Numbered from the stretch's first letter, positions 1,021-16,552 are shown. The stretch: DNA of 16,552 nucleotides from a virus (IMGVR_UViG_2585427768_000007), one strand, 5' to 3'. Notes: a model not told the origin generated them from the sequence alone. Numbers and translations are program-made.

Positions 1021-1240
1021 TGTTCAGCGCCTCAAAATCGGGTTCAGCGGAAACCAGCTCAGCTGCTTTTGGCATCGTTGTCAGTCCGTGTGGAATATCC
1101 CTGCGAAGAACTATTGGTTCGTTTTTAGGACCGATTACAAATGGGATGCCGTGCAGCCTTAACTGGTGTTGCTGTTTTGTGTATCGCTCGTATTTCGTGA
1201 TCTCTTGAATCTCTGCTGGCGATAGAGTTAATTCGTACAT
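989..1240 (-). CDS. xis: Excisionase-like small DNA-binding protein
   Basis: 83-aa basic ORF immediately upstream of int and overlapping its start; lysine-rich C-terminus. Assigned by position and size, not by a recognised motif. Confidence 0.6.
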   Translation of the reverse strand: MYELTLSPAEIQEITKYERYTKQQHQLRLHGIPFVIGPKNEPIVLRRDIPHGLTTMPKAAELVSAEPDFEALNNGKTKKKQKR

Positions 1241-1306
1241 GTGGTCACGTGCCTTACAGCATGACCGCCGCCAATATAATTCAGAGACGGCGATCAGGGT
1301 TGAACA

Positions 1307-1849
1307 TTAAAAATCAACCGGATTCGGGATCAGTTTTTGCCAGATTGCTGAAACGTATTTTGCCTGGTGACGGGCGTCATCCAGTGCATTGTGGCGAACG
1401 CCTTCGAATGGAATAACGGTTCTAGCATCAAAGTCGATTGTTTTTCCCAGCTCAACGATTGTGCGTACATCGCGATCGTTGTGGTAGCGCCACGGGCAGG
1501 GGATTCCCTGTCGTTCGTATGAACGGCGTAAAATTACGTTGTCGAAACTGGTTCCGTTGCCCCAGACCTGAACAAAAAACTCACCAGAGTTTTCGTCGAT
1601 AAATTCCCGTAATTGTAACAGTGCATCATCTAACGGGATTTCATCAGCCAGAATGGCAGACTGCGCTTCGCGCGATTGCTTAAGCCACCACTTAACGGTG
1701 TCCCGATCAATGACACCGCCAGCAGTATCCAGATCGATAGTCTTACTAAATTCCGGTCCCATATCTCCGGTTTGCGGATCGAAAAATATTGCACCTATTG
1801 AGATGATCGGGGCATCAGGATTTTTTCCCATGGTTTCAAGGTCGATCAT
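1307..1849 (-). CDS. DEDDh-type 3'-5' exonuclease (DnaQ/RNase T-like), phage early protein
   Basis: 180-aa ORF with Exo I motif MIDLETMG (D and E), Exo II region VWGNGTSFD and Exo III motif HNALDDARH. Confidence 0.75.
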   Translation of the reverse strand: MIDLETMGKNPDAPIISIGAIFFDPQTGDMGPEFSKTIDLDTAGGVIDRDTVKWWLKQSREAQSAILADEIPLDDALLQLREFIDENSGEFFVQVWGNGTSFDNVILRRSYERQGIPCPWRYHNDRDVRTIVELGKTIDFDARTVIPFEGVRHNALDDARHQAKYVSAIWQKLIPNPVDF

Positions 1850-1856
1850 CAGATGG

Positions 1857-2063
1857 TCACACGTCCTGCTGGTGGATATGATTATGATGACTGTTCACCG
1901 CAATTAAGGGATTTGCCATCTCGCCAGTTTCATCACCGCTATCGCCATGCTGAGCGCCACCAGCGCTCTCCTTACGAGAATGCGCAGCGCCTTCCATTTC
2001 CTCCGAATCTTTTTCAACCAGATACTCTTCATCGAATGTTTCCTGATATGTTGCGTCACCCAT
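1857..2063 (-). CDS. Small acidic hypothetical protein
   Basis: ATG at 2063 overlaps the TGA stop (2056-2058) of the upstream segment (ATGGGTGA), suggesting translational coupling. The longer 72-aa form starting at 2075 is possible. No recognised domain. Confidence 0.4.
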
Positions 2064-2334
2064 AACAGCCCACAATCAGGACAATTGCCGCCGCCAGCCC
2101 GACCGCAAGCAGTGCAGCTTTTTCCACTTCCTGTTGCGCCACTGGCTCTGACTGTTGCACTTCTGGCCCGTTTTGTAACGCATCCGGGCTGTTTTGTTCC
2201 GCTTTCTGGTAGTTCCGTTCCAATTCATGCTGATTCTGGTACACAGAATCGCGAGTCTGGATCCCCTCAACCCACTTCGGATCATTCGGGTCGCTAATTC
2301 CTTCAACAAATTCACCACGTGAGACAGCAAGCAC
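2056..2334 (-). CDS. C-terminal segment of phage early protein, with a hydrophobic helix ([17 protein letters not shown])
   Basis: Typical codon usage only in this frame. It opens at a GTG directly after an in-frame TAA with no Shine-Dalgarno, so it is more likely the tail of the upstream frameshifted gene than an independent gene. Confidence 0.4.
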
Positions 2335-2401
2335 TTATCGGCGTCAGGCTGGCTGATATTGGCTGCCTGCATAATTTTGTTTACTTCGTCAGCGGTAACT
2401 T

Positions 2402-3193
2402 TTACCGGCCCTGGTTGTGCGATCGTGTCAGATGCACCAGTATTTTGTTGTGAACCTGAGTACGTACCGTTTTTACGGGCGAAATATTCCTCTTTCGTGA
2501 TTTCAGTAGCCCCAGCGCCAGTGCCTTATCCAGACCAGAAAGTTTGTTTGCGCGACCGTATTTTTCGCCGTCCTTATCGGTGAAAAGGAAGTAGAACGGT
2601 CCCTCACGCTCTACAGATGGTTCGTCTTCCACTTCGCATTCGGTTTTTTCGTTGTCCGGCATTGCCGTTTCCACTGCATCAGTTTCTGGTACTGGTGACG
2701 GGAGAGTACCAGCTGTGCCCTGATTTGTTCCTTCGTCATCTTCAAACACGCCCTTGGTAGTCAGGTATTCAGTGATGTATTTGTTCAGTGCTACGGGATC
2801 TTTGTGAATGTCGATCGGACGCTCACGGACAAGGCCAAAAATAGTCTGACGGTCGTAGCGAACGGCATCAGGCTGTTTGCGCATTGATGCCGAAATACGC
2901 TTCCAGTCTTCGCGATCGTTGTCGATAACTTCATTTTTTGCCCAGCGATGGATGCTGCCGTCAATGTTTCCGGTATCAATATCGCCAGGCCAGAGAGCGT
3001 AGGCCAGTTCTTCATCCAGCGTTTTCCATGTCTGCTTGTATTCGCGACAAATGGCGGCAGTGACTGGGTTGATTTTTCCTGCTGAGTTTTCAGTGTTCTG
3101 TTGATTGACTCTGGCGCTGGCGAGATCAACAACAGACGTGTATTTTCCAGTCTCCTTGCGCTCACCGTCCCGACGTTTTTTCCAGATACGCAT
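2402..3193 (-). CDS. Middle segment of phage early protein (acidic), in -1 frame relative to the 3765 start
   Basis: 263-aa ORF. Protein-like composition and common codons from 3193 to about 2510; the last ~35 codons use rare codons (cta, cga, agg, ata, cgg) and look like out-of-frame read-through. ATG at 3193 is preceded directly by TGA. Confidence 0.45.
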   Translation of the reverse strand: MRIWKKRRDGERKETGKYTSVVDLASARVNQQNTENSAGKINPVTAAICREYKQTWKTLDEELAYALWPGDIDTGNIDGSIHRWAKNEVIDNDREDWKRISASMRKQPDAVRYDRQTIFGLVRERPIDIHKDPVALNKYITEYLTTKGVFEDDEGTNQGTAGTLPSPVPETDAVETAMPDNEKTECEVEDEPSVEREGPFYFLFTDKDGEKYGRANKLSGLDKALALGLLKSRKRNISPVKTVRTQVHNKILVHLTRSHNQGR

Positions 3194-3765
3194 TCAGCCT
3201 GAATTTCGGGCCATTTGGCACCAGGATTACATTTATGCTTAACCCACCCGATAGCAAACAGCTTAAGCTCCGGATACATAGCGTTAACATCAGGCATTTT
3301 CATCAACGCTTCAACGATATGCCCGTCAAAGGTAGCAACGTCTTCCTGCAACAATTCCTGCGCGCCAATAACCATATCAACGGTGATGTTTTCACATGTA
3401 CCGAACTTAACCAGGACAGCGTTCTGTACTTCAAGGGACAGCTTGTCAAAATTGACGTTCATCGGATCGGATTCAGTCTCAACCGGGACAAAGGAAGCAG
3501 ACTCCTCATCCCAGCGGTTTTCCTGCATATATTCAGCATCCCAGGAATCGAGGGCAGGGCGGGGTATACCGGGTTTATCCTCGCAGACAAGAAATTTATA
3601 AGCGCAGTCCTGAGCAGCCGGATAATGTTCCAGGAATTGCCAGTGAAATTTTGCGCGGGCGCGACGTTCATCACCGGCTTCAATGGCAGTGGCTACAGCG
3701 ACGGCACCTTCTTCCTTTATTGCCTGTTCGTCCGGAATAGCGGCGCAAATAAAGACTTTACTCAT
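2791..3765 (-). CDS. N-terminal segment of phage early protein (first ~197 codons genuine, remainder out of frame)
   Basis: Shine-Dalgarno GAGGT upstream of ATG 3765. Composition is protein-like up to the A6 run at 3176-3181; after that the frame yields S/T/L/R-rich low-quality sequence while the -1 frame becomes protein-like. Confidence 0.5.
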   Translation of the reverse strand: MSKVFICAAIPDEQAIKEEGAVAVATAIEAGDERRARAKFHWQFLEHYPAAQDCAYKFLVCEDKPGIPRPALDSWDAEYMQENRWDEESASFVPVETESDPMNVNFDKLSLEVQNAVLVKFGTCENITVDMVIGAQELLQEDVATFDGHIVEALMKMPDVNAMYPELKLFAIGWVKHKCNPGAKWPEIQAECVSGKNVGTVSARRLENTRLLLISPAPESINRTLKTQQEKSTQSLPPFVANTSRHGKRWMKNWPTLSGLAILIPETLTAASIAGQKMKLSTTIAKTGSVFRHQCANSLMPFATTVRLFLALSVSVRSTFTKIP

Positions 3766-4032
3766 TTTGTTTTACCTCATTACAGATTTAAGGGTGAACA
3801 AATCCCTGCCATTGCTGGCATATAAGAATGAAACCGGATAATATGACGGACGGGTTAGCCAGCCGGGATTTCGTTATTAGCCTCGCGATACTTTATCGAA
3901 CGGGAAACAGTCACCGGGAATTTTCTGTTCGTCCCTACAGAACACACGATGACTTACTGTCAAAAATGACGGCAATAACAACTGGCTCACCCGAAACAAG
4001 AAAAACGGTCAGAACAAGTGCAAATGCTGAAG

Positions 4033-4221
4033 TCACTGCTGTTCTCCGATAATACCAAGTTCAAGAAGGGCAATTCTGGAAAGTATGGAATTATCATTGA
4101 GAAGATAAGGTTCATATTTTCTCATCTTAATGGCATCTTCAGTAAACTCCCGGTTACTGAGCAGAACACCAATATCAAAACAACCTTCAGACGTATTAAC
4201 GTTTGGTAATAACGTTTCCAT
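4033..4221 (-). CDS. dicB: Cell-division inhibitor DicB homolog
   Basis: 62-aa ORF beginning METLLPNVNTSEGCF...FTEDAI, matching my recollection of Qin DicB in length and N-terminal half. GAGGA 7 nt upstream of ATG. Lies directly downstream of DicF as in Qin. Confidence 0.8.
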   Translation of the reverse strand: METLLPNVNTSEGCFDIGVLLSNREFTEDAIKMRKYEPYLLNDNSILSRIALLELGIIGEQQ

Positions 4222-4392
4222 TATCGCGTCCTCAACAATGAATTTTGTGATGCGGTGCCTGGTGCCTCCAGGTGACGTTAACCAGTTAACAATTAACGCC
4301 GGATACAGAGAATCCACCCATAACACTGTTTTTGGTTTTAACTGTTCCGCGTGCGCTCAGCCGCATTCACCACATCACAAAATTCACTTTAA

Positions 4393-4448
4393 AAAGGGCG
4401 GCAGAGCAGTCACGGAGTAAAACTGATACCGCCAAACGTCACCAGAAA
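4393..4448 (-). ncRNA. dicF: DicF small regulatory RNA (ftsZ-targeting sRNA)
   Basis: Minus strand reads TTTCTGGTGACGTTTGGCGGTATCAGTTTTACTCCGTGACTGCTCTGCCGCCCTTTTT, which matches the E. coli DicF sequence as I remember it, including the terminal GC stem and U-tract. Confidence 0.8.
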
Positions 4449-4753
4449 ATTGATAACAGAGGGCGTTGCAGCGGGGTTGTCACTTAAGCGTATGGTCAAC
4501 CTGACAACCCGGTGTCCTCAACGGGGGAAGAAATACCCCCGCCATACTTACCGCCGCGCCATTTCGCGGATTGCCACAACCGGAAGCGCACGATCGAATT
4601 AAATTTAACGACGACCTATACAGAGAGACTAACTTCTCCGGGCGCTTTCGTGTTATGCCCTGACTTTTCAGGGATATATCCTTTTCAGTAAACTGTCAGT
4701 GCCGGATTCTTATCCGTGTCCGGCGCACGCACTCTACCTCACCTGTGAATAAA

Positions 4754-5128
4754 TTAATGATTAATCGATATTTTGTTGTTTGATTCAACTTTCCCATCGG
4801 ATGTGTGATGCTTTAAATCACAGGAATTAATACTGCTTGCTGTAAAATGATTTTCAAGGGGAGCTATTCGAATCCCTTTCTTTTTCATTAACAAGCCAAA
4901 TCCTTTATTAATGATGTCCATTAATTCCAGAAAGTATTTTTCATGTAAATCCTGGTTATCAGAGAGCTGCTTCTCTTCGTACAGCCCGATAAAGGCTCGG
5001 CGTACGTTACCGGATATATTGTCGATGGTTTCTTTTTCTACGGTACTCAGGTCAAGAGTCGCCAGTTGGGAACGAACTATATTCGCTGCCATTTCCTGGA
5101 ATTGCATTGGTAAATCTTTAAATTCCAT
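4754..5128 (-). CDS. Hypothetical protein (AT-rich insert between the ydfC-like gene and dicF)
   Basis: 124-aa ORF with GAGG 8 nt upstream of the ATG. Visibly more AT-rich than flanking phage genes. No recognised motif. Confidence 0.55.
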   Translation of the reverse strand: MEFKDLPMQFQEMAANIVRSQLATLDLSTVEKETIDNISGNVRRAFIGLYEEKQLSDNQDLHEKYFLELMDIINKGFGLLMKKKGIRIAPLENHFTASSINSCDLKHHTSDGKVESNNKISINH

Positions 5129-5150
5129 TATTAGCCTCGTTGGTTAGCTA

Positions 5151-5369
5151 TTAACGCGGGTATGTAATCATTCTGGCAATGCTTAATGCCGCTGCTTTTT
5201 CCAGATTAGTGATATCCTGCTCCAGAGCGGACAGATTTTCAGCCTGCTTAGCCCTGGCTTCATTGGCCCATTTCAGATCCTGCGCTGCATTAATTTTCTG
5301 GTGCATCCACTCATAAAGTTCATCATCGGTATAGTCTGGCGCGATGATGACGGGTTCTCGTTTCTGCAT
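5151..5369 (-). CDS. ydfC: YdfC-like small prophage protein
   Basis: 72-aa ORF with GAGGA Shine-Dalgarno. Same size and position as ydfC in the Qin ydfA-ydfB-ydfC-dicF-dicB operon. Confidence 0.6.
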   Translation of the reverse strand: MQKREPVIIAPDYTDDELYEWMHQKINAAQDLKWANEARAKQAENLSALEQDITNLEKAAALSIARMITYPR

Positions 5370-5398
5370 ACTGATTCCTCGCGGTGCTGTTTCGCTTA

Positions 5399-5527
5399 TC
5401 AGCCGTTAGATTTTGCCGAGCTGGAAAGCGCCTGTTTAAACTCACTGAAGCTGAGAGCTTCTTCGCCTTCGGCAAGGCCTTCGAAGTATTCTTCGTAAGC
5501 CTTTTCCATGATTGTGTCGAAATCCAT
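5399..5527 (-). CDS. ydfB: YdfB-like small acidic protein (42 aa)
   Basis: Not in the supplied ORF track (below its size cut-off). Hand translation gives MDFDTIMEKAYEEYFEGLAEGEEALSFSEFKQALSSSAKSNG. AGGTGA Shine-Dalgarno upstream; packed between the ydfA-like and ydfC-like genes. Confidence 0.5.
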   Translation of the reverse strand: MDFDTIMEKAYEEYFEGLAEGEEALSFSEFKQALSSSAKSNG

Positions 5528-5528
5528 A

Positions 5529-5684
5529 TCACTCACCTGAGTTTCTTTCCAGCCAGCGACGGGCACCATTTTCGGTTTTAAACGTTTTGCTTTTGGTATA
5601 CGTCATCGCGGTGAATGTGCCGTCCTGGTTGGGAAACACGCCGTACACCAGAGATTCATTGTTGCCAAGATCGATAGTATCCAT
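5529..5684 (-). CDS. ydfA: YdfA-like small prophage protein (51 aa)
   Basis: MDTIDLGNNESLVYGVFPNQDGTFTAMTYTKSKTFKTENGARRWLERNSGE. GAGG 7 nt upstream of this internal ATG. The longer 80-aa form starting at 5771 is possible but its N-terminal extension is low-complexity. Confidence 0.55.
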   Translation of the reverse strand: MDTIDLGNNESLVYGVFPNQDGTFTAMTYTKSKTFKTENGARRWLERNSGE

Positions 5685-5890
5685 GCTGACCTCATTTCCC
5701 CTTAACGCCGGGGTAGCGGAACTAAAAAACTGCTGCGCTGTTATATAAAGTGTTCCCGCCGTCATGTTCATACGCCTCGGGCTGGCTACTTAACCCCTGA
5801 CCACTGCCGGGTAACTCGAAGTATTGCCTGGCGTTCTGTGGGGCGGGGGGGGTTGATGAATGAACAATACCACTACTATTTAATTATGTA

Positions 5891-5905
5891 AATAGCAGTG
5901 CTATT
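5891..5905. promoter_or_regulatory. Candidate repressor operator, perfect inverted repeat AATAGCA-G-TGCTATT, upstream of the dicB-like operon
   Basis: 15-bp palindrome between the terminator after the toxin gene and the ydfA-like gene. The same half-site recurs twice in the repressor/cro intergenic region. Confidence 0.5.
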
Positions 5906-5913
5906 ATCGTGGC

Positions 5914-5939
5914 AAGAAAAAAACCACCCGAAGGTGGTT
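5914..5939 (-). terminator. Rho-independent terminator downstream of the toxin gene
   Basis: On the minus strand, stem AACCACC, loop TTCG, stem GGTGGTT, followed by TTTTTTTCTT. Confidence 0.6.
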
Positions 5940-5953
5940 GTTGACAGGAAGGA

Positions 5954-6244
5954 TTAACAGGTTTTGTTTGGATACTGTCTTCGTGAGTGAACTACATTTA
6001 CGATCTCGATGTTAGATGCTGTTACTCGGTAAAGTATTATGTAGTTAGGATGAGTCACTATCTCACGAAGACTTGGAACTCTTTCGCTCGGTGGGTACAG
6101 ATAAGGGTGTTCAGTAAGTGACAAAACTGATGTTTCAATGCGTATTTTTAGTCTACGTGCAGCGGGAGGGTTTTCCTTAGCAATATAGGCTACGATCTGA
6201 CGTAAATCATCACGTGCAGAAGGTAGCCATAAAATGGGCAGCAT
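5954..6244 (-). CDS. Type II toxin, RelE/ParE superfamily (ParE-like)
   Basis: 96-aa ORF with ParE-like conserved layout (W near N-terminus, DL..I..YI, central proline-rich segment, ILYRV, H.RR near C-terminus). Start ATG overlaps the antitoxin stop by 1 nt. Confidence 0.8.
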   Translation of the reverse strand: MLPILWLPSARDDLRQIVAYIAKENPPAARRLKIRIETSVLSLTEHPYLYPPSERVPSLREIVTHPNYIILYRVTASNIEIVNVVHSRRQYPNKTC

Positions 6245-6435
6245 TACTCACTCCTGTTCGTTGCAGCTAATTGAGCAATAAGGTTTTCCATTTCAGCCAT
6301 TACTTCGTCATGTGGAATTGCAGGACGGGGATCTGAGAGGCTTGCTGCCACTTTGGTTCGCAACCATTCGTTATAGCTGTTTTCTTGTTCGACTGTTTCA
6401 AATTCAGAAATTATCGGGGAAAGGGCTGTACTCAT
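6244..6435 (-). CDS. Cognate antitoxin (ParD-like, putative)
   Basis: 63-aa acidic ORF immediately upstream of and coupled to the toxin. Strong Shine-Dalgarno GAGGAGG. Antitoxin-first order is typical of ParDE/RelBE modules. Confidence 0.7.
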   Translation of the reverse strand: MSTALSPIISEFETVEQENSYNEWLRTKVAASLSDPRPAIPHDEVMAEMENLIAQLAATNRSE

Positions 6436-6452
6436 GTTTTTACCTCCTCAGA

Positions 6453-6953
6453 TTAGGCGCGACGACCCTTTTGCGCAGCTAGCCATCGCGCAACGATTTC
6501 TTCAATTGATTCTTTTTTCTCCTTCATTTCCTTAAGCATTTTCTCTTTATCTTCTTTGGGGAAAGCCCTGAACGTCTGGAGCAAATCCCGCTCCATGGGG
6601 TCTATATTAAACGGAAGTTCGTTTTCCGATTGTTCCATATCTGCAGATATAGTGACAACATTGTCCTCCCCAGATTCTTGGGGATACATCCTTACAATTT
6701 GTAACAACTCGGCCATATCTGGTCTGATTGACTCGGGAGGAACTTGCAGCAACCCTGCGAACTTGATAACAGCCTCAAGATTTAAAGGTGTCTGACCATT
6801 TAGATAATGGCTTACAGCTCCCTGTGTCGAAAATCCCAGAATTTCTGCCGCACGCTCTTGGGTTAACCCTAGTTGATTTTTTTTCGCCGTCCAGATTTCT
6901 TTCAGTCTCTGGGCGGCTTGCAGGTCGATCTCTGACAGGGATTTTCTTTTCAT
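6453..6953 (-). CDS. Prophage repressor, XRE-family HTH (CI/DicA functional analog), no S24 peptidase domain evident
   Basis: 166-aa ORF; HTH segment LTQERAAEILGFSTQGAVSHYLNG; charged coiled-coil-like C-terminus; divergent from the Cro-like gene across an operator-rich intergenic region. Confidence 0.8.
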   Translation of the reverse strand: MKRKSLSEIDLQAAQRLKEIWTAKKNQLGLTQERAAEILGFSTQGAVSHYLNGQTPLNLEAVIKFAGLLQVPPESIRPDMAELLQIVRMYPQESGEDNVVTISADMEQSENELPFNIDPMERDLLQTFRAFPKEDKEKMLKEMKEKKESIEEIVARWLAAQKGRRA

Positions 6954-7060
6954 ACCTTCAATTCTAATAAGATTATTAATCTCTTTGAAATAGTGATGCT
7001 ATTTACTTTTAAAAATAACAATGCTATTAGTGATCGTGATGACATCACATGAGGTGAACA
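6954..7060. promoter_or_regulatory. Divergent promoter/operator region between repressor and Cro-like gene
   Basis: Two 15-bp sites with TGCTATT half-sites (6988-7002 AATAGTGATGCTATT; 7013-7027 AATAACAATGCTATT) and a distinct 13-bp palindrome GTGATGACATCAC at 7035-7047, just upstream of the Cro-like RBS GAGGTG. Confidence 0.6.
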
Positions 7061-7336
7061 ATGAATCTTGGAGAATATTTGCATCATTCCGGTATAACTC
7101 AGAAGCATTTTGCTGAAATTGTTGGGGTAACCCAAGGGATGGTAAGCCATGTCATTACCGGACGGGCGAAACTTACGGGGAAAAAAATTTTACGCTGGTG
7201 CGAAGCAACAGGCTGGATAGTAACTCCGCACGAGATTGATGGCAGTACTTATCCCAACCCAACCGACGGCTTACCTGTCGAGTATCAGGCTAACACACAA
7301 CCAGAGGCGGGGGTGATTCATGAAAATCAAGCATGA
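7061..7336 (+). CDS. Cro/YdaS-like HTH regulator
   Basis: 91-aa ORF; HTH segment ITQKHFAEIVGVTQGMVSHVITG; divergent from the repressor; overlaps the next gene by 17 nt. Confidence 0.75.
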   Translation: MNLGEYLHHSGITQKHFAEIVGVTQGMVSHVITGRAKLTGKKILRWCEATGWIVTPHEIDGSTYPNPTDGLPVEYQANTQPEAGVIHENQA

Positions 7337-7745
7337 ACACATCCGCATGGCAATGAATGCCTGGGCGTATCCAGACGGTGAGAAAGTTCCAGCAGCTGAA
7401 ATAGCCCGGACTTATTTCGAACTGGGGATGACGTTCCCGGAACTGTACGACGACAGCCATCCGGAAGCCCTGGCCCGTAATACCCAGAAAATTTTCCGCT
7501 GGGTAGAGAAAGACACCCCTGATGCAGTTGAAAAAATTCAGGCGTTGTTACCAGCGATCGAAAAGGCAATGCCACCTTTGCTGGTGGCCAGAATGCGCAG
7601 CCACAGTTCAGCTTATTTTCGGGAGCTGGTGGAGACGCGGGAGCGACTGGTGAGAGACGCTGATGATTTTGTCGCAGTGGCAATCGCCGGTTTCAATCAG
7701 ATGAACCGTGGTGGCCCGGCAGGAAATGCTGTGGCAGTACATTGA
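7320..7745 (+). CDS. YdaT-family protein (CII-like regulator, formerly called a toxin)
   Basis: 141-aa ORF starting MKIKHEHI, the characteristic YdaT-family N-terminus as I recall it; sits directly after the Cro/YdaS-like gene as in Rac. Confidence 0.65.
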   Translation: MKIKHEHIRMAMNAWAYPDGEKVPAAEIARTYFELGMTFPELYDDSHPEALARNTQKIFRWVEKDTPDAVEKIQALLPAIEKAMPPLLVARMRSHSSAYFRELVETRERLVRDADDFVAVAIAGFNQMNRGGPAGNAVAVH

Positions 7746-7816
7746 CTGACAATAGCCATATCGAATCGCTTCCGGCAACTCGTGAGTAAAAAGATTCGGT
7801 ATCAGAAGAGGTGAGT

Positions 7817-8833
7817 ATGGCTAACGCCTGGCTCAGATTATGGCATGACATGCCAAATGACCCTAAGTGGCGAACAATTGCCAGGGTGTCAGGGCAGCCA
7901 ATTGCAACAGTGATGGCAGTGTATATCCACCTCCTGGTGAGCGCGTCACGAAATGTCACGCGAGGTCACATTGATGTCACGACAGAAGATTTGGCAAGTG
8001 CGCTCGACGTGACAGAAGAGGTAATTGATTCAATTTTGCAGACGATGCAGGGGCGGGGACTTGATGGTGATTTAATCACTGGATGGGAAAAACGCCAGGT
8101 GCTTAAAGAGGACAACGGCAATATTTCGCAAACCGCAAAATCTCCGGCAGAGCGCAAGAGGGCGCAGCGTGAGAGGGAAAGAAAGCGGGAACAAAATGGC
8201 GATTGTCACGGCGCGTCACGAAATGTCACGCACATGTCACGACAAGTCACGACAGATAAAGATACAGATACAGAATTAAACCCCACACATAACGCGCGCA
8301 TGCGCGAGAGTGCTCCAACCGGTGAGTCGCATGGTGCGCCGTTGCAGACAGCCGAACCTGAATACCTGGACGGCCTGAGCGAACCGATCGGGAAATTTTC
8401 GATGACTACTGTCTGGCAGCCGTCGTCGGATTTTCGACAACGGGCAGCAGTGTGGGGTATGGCTCTGCCTGAGCCGGAATTTACACCTGCAGAGCTTGCC
8501 GCATTCCGGGATTACTGGATGGCGGAGGGGAAGGTTTTCACGCAGGTTCAGTGGGAGCAGAAATTTGCCCGCCACGTGCAGCACGTCAGGGCACAGGTAA
8601 AACCAGTCAGCAAGGGGGTAAGCCATGCAGCATCAGGTGGCACGGCATCACGGGCAGTTCAGGAAATCCGGGCAGCACGCGAACAGTGGGAACGTGACAA
8701 CGGATTTATCAGCAACGGAAACGGCCTGGAAGCTGTGGGAGCTTATGGGGGAGGTGTATTCGAACCGCTGGACACAGAAGAACGGGGCCGCACCTTCGAA
8801 GCTCTGGATTGCCCAGATTGGCGCGATGACTGA
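7817..8833 (+). CDS. Replication initiator / replisome organiser (lambda O-like, with DnaT-like C-terminal region)
   Basis: About 338 aa from ATG 7817 (GTG at 7811 is an alternative). Contains two iteron clusters inside the coding sequence, as lambda O contains ori. Followed by a P-like gene. Confidence 0.8.
   Translation: MANAWLRLWHDMPNDPKWRTIARVSGQPIATVMAVYIHLLVSASRNVTRGHIDVTTEDLASALDVTEEVIDSILQTMQGRGLDGDLITGWEKRQVLKEDNGNISQTAKSPAERKRAQRERERKREQNGDCHGASRNVTHMSRQVTTDKDTDTELNPTHNARMRESAPTGESHGAPLQTAEPEYLDGLSEPIGKFSMTTVWQPSSDFRQRAAVWGMALPEPEFTPAELAAFRDYWMAEGKVFTQVQWEQKFARHVQHVRAQVKPVSKGVSHAASGGTASRAVQEIRAAREQWERDNGFISNGNGLEAVGAYGGGVFEPLDTEERGRTFEALDCPDWRDD
7941..7981. repeat. Iteron cluster 1 (4 x GTCACG/GTCACA at 10-11 bp spacing)
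   Basis: GTCACG at 7945, 7955 and 7976, GTCACA at 7965; an inverted copy CGTGAC at 8008-8013. The 21-bp block GCGCGTCACGAAATGTCACGC is repeated exactly at 8211-8231. Confidence 0.7.
8201..8280. repeat. Iteron cluster 2 (5 x GTCACG at 10-11 bp spacing) plus adjacent AT-rich tract; candidate replication origin
   Basis: GTCACG at 8205, 8215, 8225, 8236 and 8246, followed by GATAAAGATACAGATACAGAATTAAA. Lambda-ori-like layout inside the initiator gene. Confidence 0.7.
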
Positions 8834-9287
8834 ACAGCAAATCCGGCTGGTCTGCCGTCAGTGCATGGACCGCTGCCGGGCGGGTGAAACGTGGCCCCCG
8901 GACCTGGCTGAGTTTGTTGCACTGATTTCGGAGAGTGGGGCAAATCCATTTGGTCTTACGGTGGATGCAGTGATGGAAGAGTACCGGCGCTGGCGCAATG
9001 AATCCTGGCGATACGACGGGAGTGATAAATACCCGTGGCCACAGCCTGTGCTGTACCACATCTGCCTCGAAATGCGTACCAGAGGGATTGAGCGCCAGAT
9101 GACGCAGGGTGAGTTAAAACGACTTGCGGAACGGCAACTGACGAAATGGGCAAAGCATGTTGGTAACGGGATGAGTGTTCCGCCAGTGCGACGACAACTG
9201 GAAGGGGCGAAACACCCGCAAGGGCCAACGCCAATTGAACGGCTGAAACAGGAATACGAACGCCGGAAGGCAGCTGGTTTTATTTGA
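8625..9287 (+). CDS. Replication protein P-like (helicase loader)
   Basis: Central and C-terminal regions align to lambda P as recalled (NR..W[IV].A, TMEQ/MTEQQ, FV/FVA, YPW). Strong Shine-Dalgarno AGGGGG 5 nt upstream of ATG 8625. That start overlaps the O-like gene by 209 nt; alternative starts are 8745 and 8826. Confidence 0.7.
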   Translation: MQHQVARHHGQFRKSGQHANSGNVTTDLSATETAWKLWELMGEVYSNRWTQKNGAAPSKLWIAQIGAMTEQQIRLVCRQCMDRCRAGETWPPDLAEFVALISESGANPFGLTVDAVMEEYRRWRNESWRYDGSDKYPWPQPVLYHICLEMRTRGIERQMTQGELKRLAERQLTKWAKHVGNGMSVPPVRRQLEGAKHPQGPTPIERLKQEYERRKAAGFI

Positions 9288-9320
9288 ATCTGAGAAACGA
9301 TTTTGTCGGAGGAAATATTA

Positions 9321-10091
9321 ATGGAAACCGTATTTGACGCACTGAAAGCACTGAAAAAAGCCTCTTCACATGTGGTGGCAGCTCGCCTTGGAATCAGTCG
9401 TGAAGAGGCTGTCAACGAGCTGTGGGAACTCAAAAGAAATGGCGTCGTTGATAAAACTGGTCACACCTGGTTTCTGGCTGGCGAAGGGGAATCCCGGGTA
9501 ACCGAAGAGCGGCCAGTAAAATCTGAAGCACAGGATATGCTGACCGGGGAGGTCGAACAAAAAGTTACCGCGGACATGATGATTGAGTTTATCTGTCAGG
9601 ATGGGGCTAAAACGTGTGAGGAACTGGCGGATAAGTTCGGTGTTAGCATTCGCAAGGTTGCTTCCACGTTGGCGGTCGTAACAGCAACGGGGCGCCTGGC
9701 ACGCGTAAATCAGAACGGTAAATTTCGTTACTGCATACCGGGCGCTGATTTACCGGCAGAGCCGGAAGCTGCATCCGTAGCGGAAACGGATGGTAAAGCC
9801 ATTCCTCAGCCAGCAGGTATTGCGTTACCTGTCCGGGAAGCGGAAACACAGGAAGAAATAAAAACTGAAAGTGTGGCGGTCACAGTGCAGTCACAGCCGT
9901 CGTTCACCAGAAAACATCCGGATGGTCTGATTTTACCATCGCTGCATGTGGCTAACCGCGAGCTGCGCCGGGCAAAAGGTCAGGTTCAGAAGTGGGAGCG
10001 AGTCTGCGCCGCGCTGCGGGAGCTGTACAAGCACCGGGATATTGTTCGACAGATTGTCGATTCATCCGGTCGTATTGTGTCGGAAAAGTGA
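9321..10091 (+). CDS. Hypothetical phage protein with two winged-helix-like segments
   Basis: 257 aa from ATG 9321 (GGAGGA 7 nt upstream). No catalytic motif recognised. Confidence 0.6.
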   Translation: METVFDALKALKKASSHVVAARLGISREEAVNELWELKRNGVVDKTGHTWFLAGEGESRVTEERPVKSEAQDMLTGEVEQKVTADMMIEFICQDGAKTCEELADKFGVSIRKVASTLAVVTATGRLARVNQNGKFRYCIPGADLPAEPEAASVAETDGKAIPQPAGIALPVREAETQEEIKTESVAVTVQSQPSFTRKHPDGLILPSLHVANRELRRAKGQVQKWERVCAALRELYKHRDIVRQIVDSSGRIVSEK

Positions 10092-10106
10092 TTGCCGGAG
10101 GCGCTT

Positions 10107-10502
10107 ATGGCAAAAGTATTTACACCAGAAGAGCGGGAAGAAGTGAAGGCGCGCATTGTGGAATTCGTGCGCCTGAGCGGACGAGAAACTTTTCGACAAC
10201 TGGCAGATAAAACGGGTGTCAGTAAGACCGCTATTCGTCGTTTATCTGGTGCGCTTGCGGCCAGTGGTGATGTCTGGCTCTGTGATTGCGGGGTATTTCC
10301 ATCAGAGCAGGCGTATCGCGTATGGCGTAAGACACCGGAGAAGGCTGCTGACCCGACACTGATTCGAAAGTTACCAGACGGAGAAATACGCCGCTACGAC
10401 AGGCGCCTGAATATAATCTGTCGCGAGTGCCGGAAGAGCGAAGCTATGCAGCGTGTACTGACATTTTATCAAGGAAATGTTAGGTATTTTAGACGTTACT
10501 AG
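10107..10502 (+). CDS. Hypothetical phage protein, winged-helix-like N-terminus, Cys-rich C-terminal half
   Basis: 131 aa from ATG 10107 (GGAGG 5 nt upstream). The TAG stop at 10500-10502 lies within the CTAG target-site duplication of IS5. Confidence 0.55.
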   Translation: MAKVFTPEEREEVKARIVEFVRLSGRETFRQLADKTGVSKTAIRRLSGALAASGDVWLCDCGVFPSEQAYRVWRKTPEKAADPTLIRKLPDGEIRRYDRRLNIICRECRKSEAMQRVLTFYQGNVRYFRRY

Positions 10503-11696
<1,194 letters not shown>

Positions 11697-11853
11697 CTAG
11701 ATTAAAGAGCATTAGTTCAGATGTGAATTGACATTTTCATGGCGCAGGGTAGAGCCAGCGTGGTTGTCCGCTTTGCGTCAAAACCAGATATTACCAGATT
11801 TAGACATATATTCCCGATAGCCCTGCTCTGATGCTACACTCTGTGCTATTTTC

Positions 11854-12540
11854 ATGACCCCAATAAAAATATTTATGACTATTGCTGATTTCAAACGGCC
11901 TAAATTGGAACTCCCAAACGGGGCAAACAAACTACTACTGCACTCTTGCTGTGCTCCATGTTCCGGTGAAGTGATGGAGGCGCTTCAGGCCTCGGGAATC
12001 GACTACACCATCTTTTTCTACAACCCGAACATTCATCCTCAGAAAGAGTATTTAATTCGTAAGGATGAAAATATTCGCTTTGCTGAACAACACGGCGTGC
12101 CGTTTATCGATGCTGATTACGACACCGACAACTGGTTTGAACGTGCCAAAGGAATGGAATGGGAGCCTGAGAGGGGGATCCGTTGTACCATGTGTTTTGA
12201 CATGCGTTTTGAGCGGACAGCGTTGTACGCTGCTGAAAATGGTTTCAGTGTGATCAGCAGTTCACTGGGCATTTCACGCTGGAAAAATATGCAGCAGGTT
12301 AACGAGTGTGGGCGGCGAGCTGTTGCGCATTATCCGGGTATGGTGTACTGGGATTATAACTGGCGCAAGCAGGGCGGCTCGTCCCGTATGATTGAAATCA
12401 GCAAGCGCGAAAAATTCTATCAGCAGGAATATTGTGGCTGTGTGTATTCTCTGCGCGATACCAATCTACACCGCAAATCTCAGGGACGCCCTCTTATCAA
12501 AATTGGCCAACTCCACTACGGAAAAGAAGAGAAGGAGTGA
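11854..12540 (+). CDS. QueH-like protein (DUF208; epoxyqueuosine-reductase family), putative
   Basis: 228-aa ORF with [11 protein letters not shown] near the N-terminus, NPNIHP, RC..CF, and C-terminal [10 protein letters not shown], matching DUF208/QueH cysteine motifs as I recall them. Family assignment is from memory. Confidence 0.55.
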
Positions 12541-12610
12541 TTTTATGGATCACCTTTCTGATTGATTTCATATTGGCGAGGTGACGTGAGTTAAGTAGAA
12601 TTGCTGCGGG

Positions 12611-12635
12611 TGCCTGAGGCTGTCTGCCTCAGGCA
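12611..12635. promoter_or_regulatory. Perfect 10-bp inverted repeat (TGCCTGAGGC-TGTCT-GCCTCAGGCA) between the queH-like and methyltransferase genes
   Basis: GC-rich hairpin with no U-tract; each arm contains a CCTNAGG heptamer. Candidate attenuator, operator or RNA-stability element. Confidence 0.4.
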
Positions 12636-12718
12636 TGAACACCAAAAGGCAGATAGAGAAAGCCCCAGTTAACATTACGCGTCCTGTAAGACGCTCAACA
12701 TTAATCTGAGGCATATGG

Positions 12719-13843
12719 ATGCGGATGAAAGAATTAAATAAATTCAGAGTGATAGACCTCTTTTGTGGGGCAGGTGGATTATCTTATGGTTTTCTTCATG
12801 GAGAGATGTCTGACTACTTTGAAAGTATCCTTGCTATTGATAATAATGCTGCAGCTATAAATACCTACAATGCCAATTTTGGTTTGCATGGAGTTCAGGC
12901 AAATATTGAGGAGTGGGCATCCAGCAATACTGTTCCTGAGGCTGATGTGGTCATAGGTGGCCCCCCGTGTCAGGGATTCAGTTTATTAAATAAGAATCGT
13001 TATGGTGATCACCGAAGAGCATTGTGGGAGCCTTATATGGATGTCATTGAGCGTTCAAGGGCTTGTATGTTCGTCATGGAAAATGTCCCCGGATTGCTGA
13101 TAAGCGATGAGTTTGCGGACATTACGTTTAGAGCGAAATCCATGGGCTTTATTCTGCTTAATCCAATGGTGTTGAATACTGCTGACTATGGAGTACCTCA
13201 GACAAGAAAACGAACGATAGCAATCGGTATCAAACGAGAACTCTTCGATGTGCATAGTATTCCGGCGTTCCCGCCAGCACCAACGCATCGTTCCCCTGAT
13301 AAGGATGTCGCTTTGCCTGAATGGGTCTGTACGCGTGATGCAATTGGTGACTTACCTGCTCCTGTTGGAACTGATATTCGTAATGAACTTCCTCCGCTGA
13401 ACTTACATTTTGGGCGTAATCCCACACCTGTTTCTCTGGAGCGATATAAAGCGGTTCCACCAGGAGGTAACCGTTTCGATTTACAGAAAAAAAGACCTGA
13501 TATAACCCCGGCGTGCTGGCTAAAAAAGAAATCTGGAGGGACCGATTTGTTTGGACGTCTGTGGTGGGACAGACCTTCAGTAACGATTCGTACTGAGTTT
13601 TTCAAACCGGAGAAAGGGCGATATTTACATCCGGAAGAGGATCGGCCAATAACTCATCGTGAGGCAGCGAGATTAATGTCTTTTCCTGATAATTTCATTT
13701 TTACCGGTTCAAAAACTGAGATTGCAAAGCAGATCGGGAATGCTGTTCCACCGCTATTTGCGGCAAAAATCGCACAATATGTGTATGGAGTTTTGCAGGG
13801 ACGGTATAAGAATAACATCAGTAAGAATAGTCAAGCAGCCTGA
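12719..13843 (+). CDS. DNA (cytosine-5)-methyltransferase, Type II R-M modification subunit
   Basis: 374-aa ORF with canonical m5C motifs in order: I DLFCGAGG, IV GGPPCQGFS, VI ENV, VIII QTRKR, IX REAARLMSFPD, X GNAVPP. GAGG 8 nt upstream of the ATG. Confidence 0.9.
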   Translation: MRMKELNKFRVIDLFCGAGGLSYGFLHGEMSDYFESILAIDNNAAAINTYNANFGLHGVQANIEEWASSNTVPEADVVIGGPPCQGFSLLNKNRYGDHRRALWEPYMDVIERSRACMFVMENVPGLLISDEFADITFRAKSMGFILLNPMVLNTADYGVPQTRKRTIAIGIKRELFDVHSIPAFPPAPTHRSPDKDVALPEWVCTRDAIGDLPAPVGTDIRNELPPLNLHFGRNPTPVSLERYKAVPPGGNRFDLQKKRPDITPACWLKKKSGGTDLFGRLWWDRPSVTIRTEFFKPEKGRYLHPEEDRPITHREAARLMSFPDNFIFTGSKTEIAKQIGNAVPPLFAAKIAQYVYGVLQGRYKNNISKNSQAA

Positions 13844-13856
13844 AGGAAATCCAGAA

Positions 13857-14735
13857 ATGAATGGAGATTTGGTTGACAGCATAGTTGGTTTTGCTGAAGC
13901 CAGAAAGGAGTTTCATGCCCAATTGTTACTGAATACGCTCACAATTAATACTGCCGGAGTTGTTAGTAACGCAGATAGCAGTAACAAAAACAGTAAAGCT
14001 ATAGCAAGAGAAATTGCTCGCTTCTTGCAGGCTGAAACGATTGGTGAACGTGTTGCAGGGCAAACATCTGGTAATCAGTTTGAGAGTATCTGCGCAGAGT
14101 TTATAGAAAAAACCTTTTTTAAACTCAGCCACTTACGCCCTGGAAAATGGAATGTACATCAGGTTTCTGGTAGAAACAGATTAGAGATAGCTAAATATGA
14201 ACAATATGCCCATCTTATAGCATTGGATAGTGCTGCAAAAAGTAATCCTCAGCTAGCTGCTGCACTGGGGAGTGATTATACGATTTCACCAGATATTATT
14301 GTTGAAAGAGAACCTGAATGTGATCAAGTTATCAACAGTCCTGAATTACTGGTGGATGATTCTGTTACCCGCATGTCAGCTCTCAGGAGTTCGAATGGTG
14401 GGAAACCAATATTACACGCAAGTATTTCCTGCAAATGGACAATAAGAAGCGACCGGGCCCAGAATGCTCGTTCTGAGGCATTAAATCTTATTCGCAACCG
14501 TAAGGGAAATCTCCCTCATGTAATGGTTGTTACTGCTGAGCCTACTCCAAGTCGTCTGGCGTCTATTGCTCTTGGTACTGGTGATATAGATTGCGTGTAT
14601 CATTTTGCGCTTTATGAACTTATATCAGCAGTTGAAATACTGGGGCTCAGCGATGCAGCTGACATGCTTTCCGTGATGGTTAATGGTAAAAGATTAAAGG
14701 ATATTTCTGATCTTCCCTTGGATCTTGCAGTCTGA
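13857..14735 (+). CDS. Type II restriction endonuclease, putative (NgoMIV/Cfr10I-like PD...SxK...E arrangement)
   Basis: 292 aa from ATG 13857, 14 nt after the methyltransferase stop (the track ORF starting at 13722 overlaps the methyltransferase). P145-D146, S191-x-K193, E207: the D-to-K spacing of 47 and K-to-E spacing of 14 equal those I recall for NgoMIV (D140, K187, E201). Confidence 0.6.
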   Translation: MNGDLVDSIVGFAEARKEFHAQLLLNTLTINTAGVVSNADSSNKNSKAIAREIARFLQAETIGERVAGQTSGNQFESICAEFIEKTFFKLSHLRPGKWNVHQVSGRNRLEIAKYEQYAHLIALDSAAKSNPQLAAALGSDYTISPDIIVEREPECDQVINSPELLVDDSVTRMSALRSSNGGKPILHASISCKWTIRSDRAQNARSEALNLIRNRKGNLPHVMVVTAEPTPSRLASIALGTGDIDCVYHFALYELISAVEILGLSDAADMLSVMVNGKRLKDISDLPLDLAV

Positions 14736-14807
14736 CATCTCTACGTAAATAGAGTCTGTCATATTTTAACTGTGATGGCACGTCATTGACTTCAGTACAT
14801 TTTTACT

Positions 14808-14833
14808 AACCCGCTTCGCGGGTTTTGTTTTTT
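14808..14833 (+). terminator. Rho-independent terminator downstream of the restriction gene
   Basis: AACCCGC-TTC-GCGGGTT followed by TTGTTTTTT. Confidence 0.65.
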
Positions 14834-14905
14834 CCTGGCATTCTGGTTTACAATCCACACGCCAGCCTGAACAACTGGCACCTGCTGCGCCAGCAGAGAA
14901 AACAG

Positions 14906-15184
14906 ATGGCGCACGATACCAAACCATACAATTCTGATAATTCAGCCGTCTTTGCCAGCAGGCACGGGCGGCGTTCTCATGCATTCAAATCTGACTGGTA
15001 TCAGCACGACCCCTGCACCGAAGAACAGGCTGAATGGCTGATTCAGTGTTACCGCAGGCGCGGATACGAGGTTAAGAAAGCCCTCACCCTCGATTATCGT
15101 CACTGGATAATCTACGTCAGACTCCCTTATTCCGAACGCCCACCGCGTCCGTCCCGCACATATCAGCAACGCATCTGGAGGTAA
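14906..15184 (+). CDS. Hypothetical small protein
   Basis: 92 aa from ATG 14906; the track ORF start at 14825 overlaps the terminator. Several rare arginine codons; ends about 30 bp before the IS66 truncation point. Weak call. Confidence 0.3.
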   Translation: MAHDTKPYNSDNSAVFASRHGRRSHAFKSDWYQHDPCTEEQAEWLIQCYRRRGYEVKKALTLDYRHWIIYVRLPYSERPPRPSRTYQQRIWR

Positions 15185-15214
15185 CGTGCGGGTATTACTT
15201 CGACCTGTTCTGGT

Positions 15215-15682
15215 AAAGGCGCTGCTGATAAGCTCCAGTTGCTCTGACACATCACATCCCAGAGAACTGAGTTCACCACCACAGGCAGGACAGCATTCCT
15301 CTTCCGGCCGGATAACCCGGGTTTCACGGGGAAGTGAGGCCGGTAACGGTTTACGGGCTGAAGACTGGCGCAGGGCGGATGGCAGTACCGGGTCATATTG
15401 CTCACCCAGCGTTTCCGCCATTTCTTCCTGAAGTGCGCTGATTCGCTCCTGTGCTTCCTGTATCTGCCGTTCGGTTTTTGCACGAAGTTTTTCTGAGCTT
15501 TTACCGAACTGCATACGTTGCAGTTTCGCAACCAGCGCCTTCAGCCGGTTGATTTCGGAAGCATAAGCCGCCACCCGCTGTGAGAGCAGGCGGTTGTATT
15601 CAGCCATCTGGCGGATGGTGTCCTGTTGCGTCTGCAACAGTGCCCGCAGGCGGGCGTTCTCATGAGCAAGTGAGGTGTCCAT
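15215..15682 (-). pseudogene. IS66 transposase TnpC, N-terminal fragment only
   Basis: Starts MDTSLAHENARLRALLQTQQDTIRQMAEYNRLL, with leucine zipper and CxxC zinc finger (CCPACGG) as in ISEc8-like TnpC. Catalytic region absent; the track ORF continues to 14942 as out-of-frame read-through. Confidence 0.8.
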
Positions 15683-15701
15683 ATCCTCACTTTACAACGG
15701 G

Positions 15702-16049
15702 TTATATGCGGATTCCAGCGCGTTCCGTTCGTTTCGGGTGCTTCCAGTTGATACCTTCAAGAAGCATGGATAACTGAGCCGGAGTAAGGTGCACCTTGCC
15801 GTCACGGGTGACTGGCCAGACGAAGCGGCCCCGCTCCAGGCGTTTGGTGAAGAGGCACAGTCCGTCACTGTCAGCCCACAACACTTTTATCTGGTCACCC
15901 CGGCGTCCGCGGAAGATGAACAGGTGTCCGGAGAACGGGTCATCCTTCAGGACGTTCTGAACTTTTGATGCCAGGCCGTTAAAGCCATTTCGCATATCGG
16001 TGATACCTGCAACCAGCCAGATACGCGAACCTGCAGGGAGAGATATCAT
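15702..16049 (-). CDS. IS66 accessory protein TnpB (Orf2)
   Basis: 115-aa ORF MISLPAGSRIWLVAGITDMRNGFNGL..., typical IS66 Orf2. Start overlaps the tnpA stop (ATGA). Confidence 0.9.
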   Translation of the reverse strand: MISLPAGSRIWLVAGITDMRNGFNGLASKVQNVLKDDPFSGHLFIFRGRRGDQIKVLWADSDGLCLFTKRLERGRFVWPVTRDGKVHLTPAQLSMLLEGINWKHPKRTERAGIRI

Positions 16050-16552
16050 CAGTGGCTGCTCCCTTTTATTTCGCGGATAAGTGTCTGTAATAACGCCGGC
16101 GTCAGTTTACCTTTAAGCCTGAGAGTTCCGGCCGGCAGAACCAGCTCACAACACAGACTGTCGGACGGTGTATTTATCTGCTCTGGTTCCTGTGCGGGGG
16201 CCGGGATTTTATTATCCGGCTCCGGCGTTAACGTCACGGGAAGCAGTGCCGGCATATTTTTTCCGGAAGGCAGCAGGCCACCTTTCCGGTATTGATGGCG
16301 CCAGTTGAAGAGCAGGTTATCGTTGATTCCGTTTTCCCGGGCGATCTGCGCCACACAGGCTCCGGGCTGCAGTGACTGCTCCACTAAGGCGATTTTAAAC
16401 TCATAAGGGAAGTTGGGCCGCCGGGGACGTTTTTTTACCACGGGGGCTTCGGATATAACGGTGCTTTCAGGACGTACGACTGGTACCGTGGAAAATTGTC
16501 CGTAAAGGCAGGCATCAAGTTCCTGCTCCGACATGCCTGCGGGCAAGGCCAC
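16049..16552 (-). CDS. IS66 accessory protein TnpA (Orf1), N-terminus at or beyond window edge
   Basis: HTH-containing IS66 Orf1-like sequence (...ACVAQIARENGINDNLLFNWRHQYRKG...). The likely ATG at 16534 (MSEQELD...) is inside the window, but the ORF is open to the window edge. Confidence 0.8.
   Translation of the reverse strand: MALPAGMSEQELDACLYGQFSTVPVVRPESTVISEAPVVKKRPRRPNFPYEFKIALVEQSLQPGACVAQIARENGINDNLLFNWRHQYRKGGLLPSGKNMPALLPVTLTPEPDNKIPAPAQEPEQINTPSDSLCCELVLPAGTLRLKGKLTPALLQTLIREIKGSSH

Follow-up and report, generated by a model that had tools for sequence, protein, structure and literature searches.

DUF1627 and DUF977 genes at the end of the replication block of an Escherichia coli lambdoid prophage: a YdaW-family protein and a long-form homologue of lambda Ren

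Identity of the Two Proteins and the Link to Lambda Ren

The viral DNA IMGVR_UViG_2585427768_000007, a stretch of 16,552 nucleotides (nt) referred to here as the window, is an Escherichia coli lambdoid prophage integrated beside yccA, and the two adjacent open reading frames (ORFs) at 9321-10502, designated A and B, are the last two genes of its early rightward replication block. On the evidence of family profiles, ORF A almost certainly encodes a protein of the DUF1627 or YdaW family and ORF B a DUF977 or LygF protein, the long form (130-140 amino acids, aa) of lambda Ren. Both families have long been catalogued and the Ren-like label already exists in PHROGs, so that the pair must be regarded as already known. 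An earlier note on this DNA, made from the sequence alone, had described the two proteins as unknown, which is not the case, as both are exact members of Pfam families (DUF1627 and DUF977) with homologues in most E. coli genomes; its suggestion that they occupy the position of ren has fared better, B being a homologue of Ren by profile, direct alignment, and a C-terminal motif held in common.

The Pfam model for DUF1627 (PF07789) matches A with an E-value of 4.4e-84 (280.4 bits against a gathering cut-off of 28.1) over profile positions 1-155 of 155, corresponding to aa 91-245, which leaves the first of two predicted winged helices outside the model, and phrog_630 matches the same protein with an E-value of 2.7e-131. 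When 40 diverse members were aligned and considered together with AlphaFold2 (AF2) models, A displayed the architecture of the family, consisting of an N-terminal winged helix, a second winged helix, a variable linker, and a conserved C-terminal helix. The protein is 55% identical over aa 1-154 to YdaW of the K-12 Rac prophage, and phage records use YdaW family as the name for DUF1627 and LygF as the name for DUF977. ORF B is matched by the DUF977 model (PF06163) with an E-value of 1.6e-38 (132.2 bits against a gathering cut-off of 22.1) over profile positions 1-133 of 134. RefSeq has an entry with 100% identity for each protein, WP_032178993.1 for A and WP_032178995.1 for B.

The connection to Ren is made by phrog_142, annotated "Ren-like exclusion protein," which matches B with an E-value of 2.7e-40 (profile positions 1-113 of 116) and lambda Ren with an E-value of 1.6e-41 (positions 11-110 of 116), and by BLASTP, which aligns B directly with Ren at 27% identity (E 4e-7). 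Alignment of seven DUF977 proteins with lambda Ren leaves nine columns invariant (N102, E107, C108, R109, S111, M114, R116, L118, and G123 of B), from which a C-terminal motif common to DUF977 and Ren, N....ECR.S..M.R.L, can be read. The phrog_142 profile additionally recognizes aa 84-136 of A (E 2.1e-6). Searches in other directions yielded little: PDB chain sequences gave no match to A or B below an E-value of 0.07, PADLOC defence models gave only weak matches to the helix-turn-helix (HTH) region (E of at least 1e-3), and the curated regulator families of Pfam and NCBIfam remained below their cut-offs, for example HTH_IclR at 16.8 against 22 and HTH_metalloreg at 17.5 against 55.

Predicted Structures and Relatedness of the Winged Helices

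Structures were predicted with AF2 using a 96-sequence alignment for B and, for A, an alignment first widened with distant relatives. The models contain a helix-strand-helix-helix-hairpin topology typical of the winged helix twice in A and once in B. In A the two domains span aa 4-52 and 84-138, each followed by a disordered acidic linker, and their relative orientation is undefined (predicted template modelling score 0.27). The first is the most conserved part of the DUF1627 family, with L34 and W50 invariant. The C-terminal region carries a net charge of +6 and the family consensus EIRRTKxxLxxLExLRxAxRxLxKH, and may take part in oligomerisation; the protein overall is near neutral, with its second winged helix and C-terminus basic. 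In B, aa 7-75 adopt a helix, strand, helix, helix, β-hairpin, helix arrangement with a predicted local distance difference test score (pLDDT) above 90, and B and Ren are both strongly basic (isoelectric point ∼10; net charge of B +11).

Foldseek comparison of B with the PDB returned top matches that are all winged-helix domains, namely those of MarR, IclR, GntR, MntR, and Z-alpha (TMt 0.80, root-mean-square deviation 1.6), with modest E-values of ∼3e-3 and a probability of ∼1.0, and matches in a viral structure library agree with this result. For A, the PDB entries that match best have winged helices in tandem: DIP2311, ScpB, the C-terminal domains of SelB, DDRGK1/UFL1, and ESCRT-II (E 1e-4 to 1e-3, probability ∼1.0). 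Several of these use their winged helices to bind protein or RNA, and the fold alone does not therefore establish DNA binding.

The three winged helices are related to one another beyond chance, as judged from sequence and profile comparison. Residues 73-118 of A and 4-51 of B are 39% identical (E 3e-5), and whole-family profiles align the second winged helix of A with that of B (E 5e-4). Profiles sliced to the individual domains and compared with hhalign relate the two winged helices of A to each other (probability 94%, E 1.2e-7), the second of A to that of B (probability 89%, E 2.4e-6), and the first of A to that of B (E 2e-4); the similarity between the two copies within A is invisible to plain BLASTP and emerges only from profile comparison. 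The guess in the earlier note that both proteins begin with similar, winged-helix-like segments, doubled in A, is thus borne out, since a winged-helix fold is predicted twice in A and once in B and the N-termini of the two proteins are related. That A might simply be a module like DUF977 bearing one winged helix more was considered and rejected, since profile comparison finds no relationship between the two proteins in their C-terminal regions (E 0.08, with EIRR as the only common tetrapeptide).

The predicted recognition helix of DUF977 (10224-10268 in the window, aa 40-53 of B) falls into at least four discrete allelic types, VSHxSVGRLCMELAASG, ATRYLMSVLARELVASG, VSKTAIRRLSxALAAxG, and AGWHSVRRCLVDVLACG, and the second winged helix of DUF1627 likewise has at least two. 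At an Escherichia albertii locus (L010), the O-like, P-like, and A proteins are 85%, 98%, and 83% identical to those of the window and the B allele is a different one.

The cysteines of B were the subject of a further claim. The Cys-rich tail pointed out in the earlier note, CDC...CRECRK, is literally there, with cysteines at positions 59, 61, 105, and 108, but does not amount to a conserved metal site. A reading of B as a zinc-binding protein with these residues as a four-ligand site could draw on the CxxC pair, C105 and C108, each kept in 96 of the 97 DUF977 clusters, and on the majority allele (57 of 96 aligned sequences), which instead of C59 and C61 has H40 and C47. C59, however, is peculiar to the window allele (1/97 clusters, with S elsewhere) and C61 is found in only 12/97 (Y elsewhere), the CxxC cysteines are the only ones in many DUF977 alleles, and lambda Ren has F in place of C105. 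No fourth conserved Cys or His ligand is present across the DUF977 family. As only C105 and C108 are conserved and Ren lacks the former, a four-ligand site is not a feature of the family; the four-cysteine site was rejected on conservation, and zinc binding by B through such a site is considered very unlikely. The CxxC pair may still have a role.

Genomic Context and the Adjoining IS5

The coordinates of the two genes, their predicted domains, and their neighbours are collected in Table 1. The order in the window is O-like initiator, P-like loader, A, and B, with intergenic gaps of 33 nt and 15 nt, so the pair does lie right behind the replication genes, as the earlier note had placed it. That note also gave the correct length for B and one residue too many for A (257 aa), the stop codon having been counted. 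Homologues of A begin METVFDALK and those of B MAKVFT; longer TTG starts appear in the mechanical ORF list.

Table 1. Position of genes and predicted features in the window (H, helix; E, strand, in AF2 models)
Feature	Coordinates	Strand	Details
DnaT-domain O-like initiator gene	7817-8833		upstream of ORF A
lambda-P-like loader gene	8826-9287		between O-like gene and ORF A
Shine-Dalgarno GGAGG, ORF A	9308..9312	+	sequence inspection; 8 nt upstream of ATG 9321
ORF A	9321..10091	+	ATG 9321, TGA 10089-10091, 256 aa; DUF1627 / YdaW-family protein
A winged helix 1 (aa 1-55)	9321..9485	+	H4-11, E13-15, H16-23, H27-39, E43-46, E49-52; pLDDT 84-91
A winged helix 2 (aa 80-141), Ren-like	9558..9743	+	H84-94, H99-106, H110-123, E127-131, E134-138; pLDDT ~80
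A basic C-terminal helical region (aa 204-256), conserved	9930..10088	+	helices 208-237, 239-255; pLDDT 81-88
Shine-Dalgarno GGAGG, ORF B	10097..10101	+	sequence inspection; 5 nt upstream of ATG 10107
ORF B	10107..10502	+	ATG 10107, TAG 10500-10502, 131 aa; DUF977 / LygF, long-form Ren homologue
B winged helix (aa 1-80)	10107..10346	+	H7-24, H29-36, H40-53, hairpin 57-64, H67-75; pLDDT >90
Ren-family C-terminal motif of B (aa 89-123)	10371..10475	+	LPDGEIRRYDRRLNIICRECRKSEAMQRVLTFYQG; pLDDT 45-65, low
IS5 copy, 1194 bp	10503..11696	+	adjoins pair, outside it; terminal repeats GGAAGGTGCGAACAAG and CTTATTCGCACCTTCC

As no convincing internal promoter or terminator was found among the P-like gene, A, and B (counts not above those in shuffled sequence), the pair would stand last in the early rightward replication operon, and a transcript starting at the early rightward promoter probably covers it together with the O-like and P-like genes. 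A weak terminator-like element, a 5-bp hairpin with a T-run, lies at 9262-9278, at the end of the P-like gene and 40 nt upstream of ORF A. Rfam and tRNA scans gave no match within 9321-10502.

A and B share a reading frame, separated by the TGA of A and five codons (LPEAL; 10089-10109), and one database cluster (P0002) consists of an A-B fusion through a TGA-to-CGA change. Programmed read-through fusing A to B was considered and rejected: in Rac-SA53 and phage 75/02 the two genes do not share a frame, and the arrangement here is hence probably due to chance.

The IS5 copy directly 3′ of the pair was described in the earlier note as a breakpoint; its position was correctly seen, but it is a simple insertion that leaves B intact. 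A 4-bp CTAG target duplication (10499-10502 and 11697-11700) flanks the element and overlaps the stop codon of B, and E. coli strain B-1109 carries identical A and B genes with the empty site, ...GTTACTAGATTAAAG.... Truncation or rearrangement of B by IS5 was therefore rejected, the C-terminal tail ...QGNVRYFRRY being a native allele that also occurs in 14 other clusters. The broader view that A and B are decayed remnants, truncated or altered by the element, could appeal to the IS5 abutting the stop codon of B and to the exonuclease gene of the same prophage, which is broken by many 1-bp insertions or deletions (indels). Both ORFs, however, are full length against their Pfam profiles and identical to proteins of strains lacking the IS5, the tail of B recurs as just described, and the B stop codon, because it sits inside the duplicated target, predates the insertion. 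For the coding sequences decay is already refuted, and the chance of it is put close to nil.

The surrounding sequence holds several further features. A prophage of strain JKHS016 is 98-99% identical to the window over 1-15215, where the similarity stops, and 15216-16552 belongs to a different mosaic segment at the right end. The RecE-like exonuclease gene (1284-3765, minus strand), broken here, is intact in JKHS016 (822 aa); relative to L001 the region 1855-3980 shows 20 small (1-3 bp) indels, ∼11 of them within the RecE-like gene, and many substitutions; either a pseudogene is decaying here or the sequence is of low quality. A full-length DicF small RNA (4396-4447, minus strand; Rfam RF00039, 76.7 bits) adjoins dicB. 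Inside the O-like gene, GTCACG repeats spaced ∼10 bp apart form two clusters 260 bp from each other (four copies at 7945-7984 and five at 8205-8254) that are probably origin iterons. Past the IS5, at 11854-14735 and in the position of the nin region, cargo genes encode QueH (epoxyqueuosine reductase), a Dcm-type cytosine methyltransferase, and an NgoMIV-family restriction endonuclease, and a match to Rfam sok (RF01794; 12608-12788, plus strand; 61 bits against a threshold of 59) that overlaps the start of the methyltransferase ORF (12719-13843) may be a hok/sok remnant.

Distribution and Synteny

Prevalence was assessed by DNA-level searches with A and B separately in 5,426 complete E. coli genomes. 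DNA resembling A is present in 3,232 of them (60%) and DNA resembling B in 4,204 (77%), the latter with a median of 2 and a maximum of 7 copies per genome. DUF1627 is a narrow family: 1.84 billion proteins yield only 160 representative clusters of it, and every member with a name in a follow-up search was enterobacterial. The DUF977 locus scan returned 13 loci, all of them from Escherichia or Shigella or from probably mis-binned contigs of metagenome-assembled genomes (MAGs); four of these loci (L015, L016, L018, and L019), from Collinsella, Bacillota, and Veillonella MAGs, lie on short contigs at 55-60% identity to the E. coli protein and are probably Escherichia prophage contigs binned in error. 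E. coli lambdoid genes also turn up in two phage records, PP818812.1 ("Actinobacillus phage vB_Apl-pPE4") and MW057783.1 ("Campylobacter phage CJLB-4"); the identities are 74% for DUF1627 and 100% for lambda Ren, and the records probably reflect contamination or wrong labelling.

The order initiator, loader, DUF1627, DUF977 recurs with a P-like loader in Rac-SA53 and E. albertii, and with a DnaC-like loader in Shigella phage 75/02 Stx. DUF1627 occurs without DUF977 in PPompW phages, and DUF977 without DUF1627 in mEp460, Tritos, and several Escherichia or Shigella genomes, where the gene directly before it encodes a DnaC-like loader or an initiator standing alone; in mEp460 and Tritos it stands directly 3′ of a single initiator gene with no loader. 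At all loci examined, lambda included, the DUF977 or Ren gene, or the DUF1627-DUF977 pair, directly follows an initiator or loader, and in the rows sampled from the 174 phage records with lambda-type Ren, its hit comes directly after P, or after the loader that takes the place of P, and overlaps that gene in part.

Proposed Function

The most likely function of B is that of lambda Ren: it would allow a phage in replication to withstand the Rex-type exclusion, by abortive infection, that a lambdoid prophage already resident in the host imposes. B would work by contacting the exclusion proteins, the O-type initiator complex, or both, and not by repression at a specific operator. A, which contains a Ren-like winged helix and travels with B, is proposed as its partner, an oligomeric tandem winged-helix adaptor that would probably act at the same step. 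The mechanism is carried over from Ren, and such an anti-exclusion role for A and B is put forward tentatively, at rather less than an even chance; when identity and mechanism are blended into a single judgement, the reading as a whole is rated slightly better than even.

The background to this proposal comes largely from lambda. A preprint by Thomason et al. reports that O, P, and ren are co-translated, that loss of ren by mutation makes heteroimmune lambda grow poorly on Rex+ lysogens, a defect whose suppressors map to O and P, and that RexA and RexB each interact with Ren and O in bacterial two-hybrid assays (bioRxiv 10.1101/2021.04.19.439022). A RexB-Ren interaction in the yeast two-hybrid system is likewise given by two sources (bioRxiv 10.1101/2021.04.19.439022; PMC3224144). 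For the DUF1627 family, an overexpression screen for blockers of the retron-Sen2 toxin RcaT had K-12 ydaW among its prophage hits.

Several points weigh against the anti-exclusion reading. The Ren link consists of 27% identity and a remote-homology cluster, and the Pfam DUF977 model gives no hit to lambda Ren, such that the relationship is recorded by PHROGs and not by Pfam. The AF2 model of the C-terminal half of B, the basic tail, is unreliable (pLDDT 45-65). The ydaW screen hit came beside the generic regulators dicC and mhpR and may be indirect. Nucleic-acid binding by B is equally plausible, given that B and Ren are basic and that the fold of B matches mostly DNA-binding regulators. Finally, this prophage has no rexAB, meaning that any target would be located in other prophages. 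Lambda itself carries rexA-rexB in the slot downstream of CI. Directly downstream of the CI-like repressor gene of the window (6453-6953) there is a RelE/ParE-family toxin gene with a small upstream ORF (5954-6435, minus strand).

The view suggested by the earlier note, that A and B are sequence-specific DNA-binding transcription regulators, which would then control early or late expression or the lysis-lysogeny decision, is fed by the resemblance of the B winged helix to the DNA-binding domains of MarR, IclR, GntR, and MntR, by the weak sub-threshold Pfam HTH matches, by the charge of B, and by the discrete alleles of its predicted recognition helix, as would be expected for specificity swapping. 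No operator-like repeats or palindromes were found in 6900-10520, however, where the only nearby arrays are the GTCACG iterons in the O-like gene; and the helix-3 allele of B varies independently of which replication genes stand beside it, as the E. albertii locus with similar O, P, and A genes and another B allele illustrates. Lambda Ren, the one member with a phenotype, is defined by Rex resistance and protein contacts, and the best structural matches of A are tandem winged helices that bind protein or RNA (ScpB, ESCRT-II, SelB); the regulatory role, one of the two main rival readings, is judged doubtful.

As the other main rival, A and B could be replication accessory factors, for example by stabilising or remodelling the initiator-loader-DnaB complex or the theta-to-sigma switch, with the Rex sensitivity of ren mutants as a side effect. 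With every type of initiator or loader the genes come last in the replication module, DUF977 follows even the single initiator of mEp460 and Tritos, and the preprint, besides reporting the suppressors in O and P, says that Ren accompanies all initiator-helicase-loader modules (bioRxiv 10.1101/2021.04.19.439022). Ren is nevertheless dispensable for lambda growth, with replicative killing and P lethality also proceeding in its absence, and A or B can each be missing from otherwise similar prophages, and this explanation is judged unlikely.

An extension of the anti-exclusion reading can also be envisaged, in which DUF1627 and DUF977 form a two-gene anti-abortive-infection module within the replication block, the Ren-like winged helices binding sensors of the host or of prophages, such as RexA/RexB, and possibly retron toxins such as RcaT, in place of DNA, and the helix alleles recording an arms race. 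It is speculative, and its probability is taken to be low.

Significance

The present significance of the pair is small, as the proteins are identical to RefSeq entries and come from two catalogued and very common families; that DUF977 has a winged-helix nature had been inferred as early as 2009 (PMC2686095). There is a modest gain in that DUF977 as a long Ren is made explicit, a Ren-like winged helix is recognized in DUF1627, and the ideas of a zinc site and an IS5 breakpoint are corrected, and the old question of how Ren acts receives a clearer frame, both genes riding with every type of replication module. Should the pair turn out to counter abortive infection of the Rex or retron type in general, a function would be assigned to one of the most frequent unannotated gene pairs of enterobacterial prophages, and should the anti-exclusion module hold true, the discrete recognition-helix alleles would be a record of an arms race with sensors.

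Comparison with Known Systems

Among characterized proteins the closest counterpart of B is lambda Ren (NP_040633, 96 aa), with which it has in common membership of PHROG 142 (E ∼1e-40 for both), a winged-helix N-terminus, a basic tail with the motif given above, and the slot behind the replication genes in the rightward early operon. In contrast to Ren, to which it is only 27% identical, B has 35 more residues, an additional helix at the N-terminus, and a longer linker, shows CxxC where Ren has FxxC, and is separated from the P-like gene by another gene, with no overlap between the two. The LygF proteins of Rac-SA53, Shigella phage 75/02 Stx, mEp460, and others are 56-63% identical to B and have the same neighbours; the window allele differs from them in being shorter, with 10 aa deleted from the linker, in ending with the VRYFRRY tail, and in belonging to a minority type at the recognition helix.

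For A, the nearest named relative is K-12 Rac YdaW (b1361), which has both winged helices and, like A, stands behind the replication genes, with the identity over aa 1-154 noted above. YdaW is, however, a C-terminally truncated remnant lacking the conserved C-terminal helix, whereas A is of the full-length orthologue type, and K-12 Rac, unlike the window, has lost the downstream DUF977 gene; the RcaT screen hit is the one phenotype reported for YdaW. At the level of structure, ScpB, the ESCRT-II subunits, the C-terminal domains of SelB, and DDRGK1/UFL1 resemble A over ∼145-155 columns spanning both winged helices (Foldseek E 1e-4 to 1e-3), a resemblance of architecture with no detectable sequence relationship. 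The MarR-, IclR-, and GntR-type factors are similar in fold to aa 7-75 of B and to each winged helix of A and give weak profile matches, but A and B differ from them in scoring below the curated cut-offs, in having no effector or dimerisation domain, and in having no operator found.

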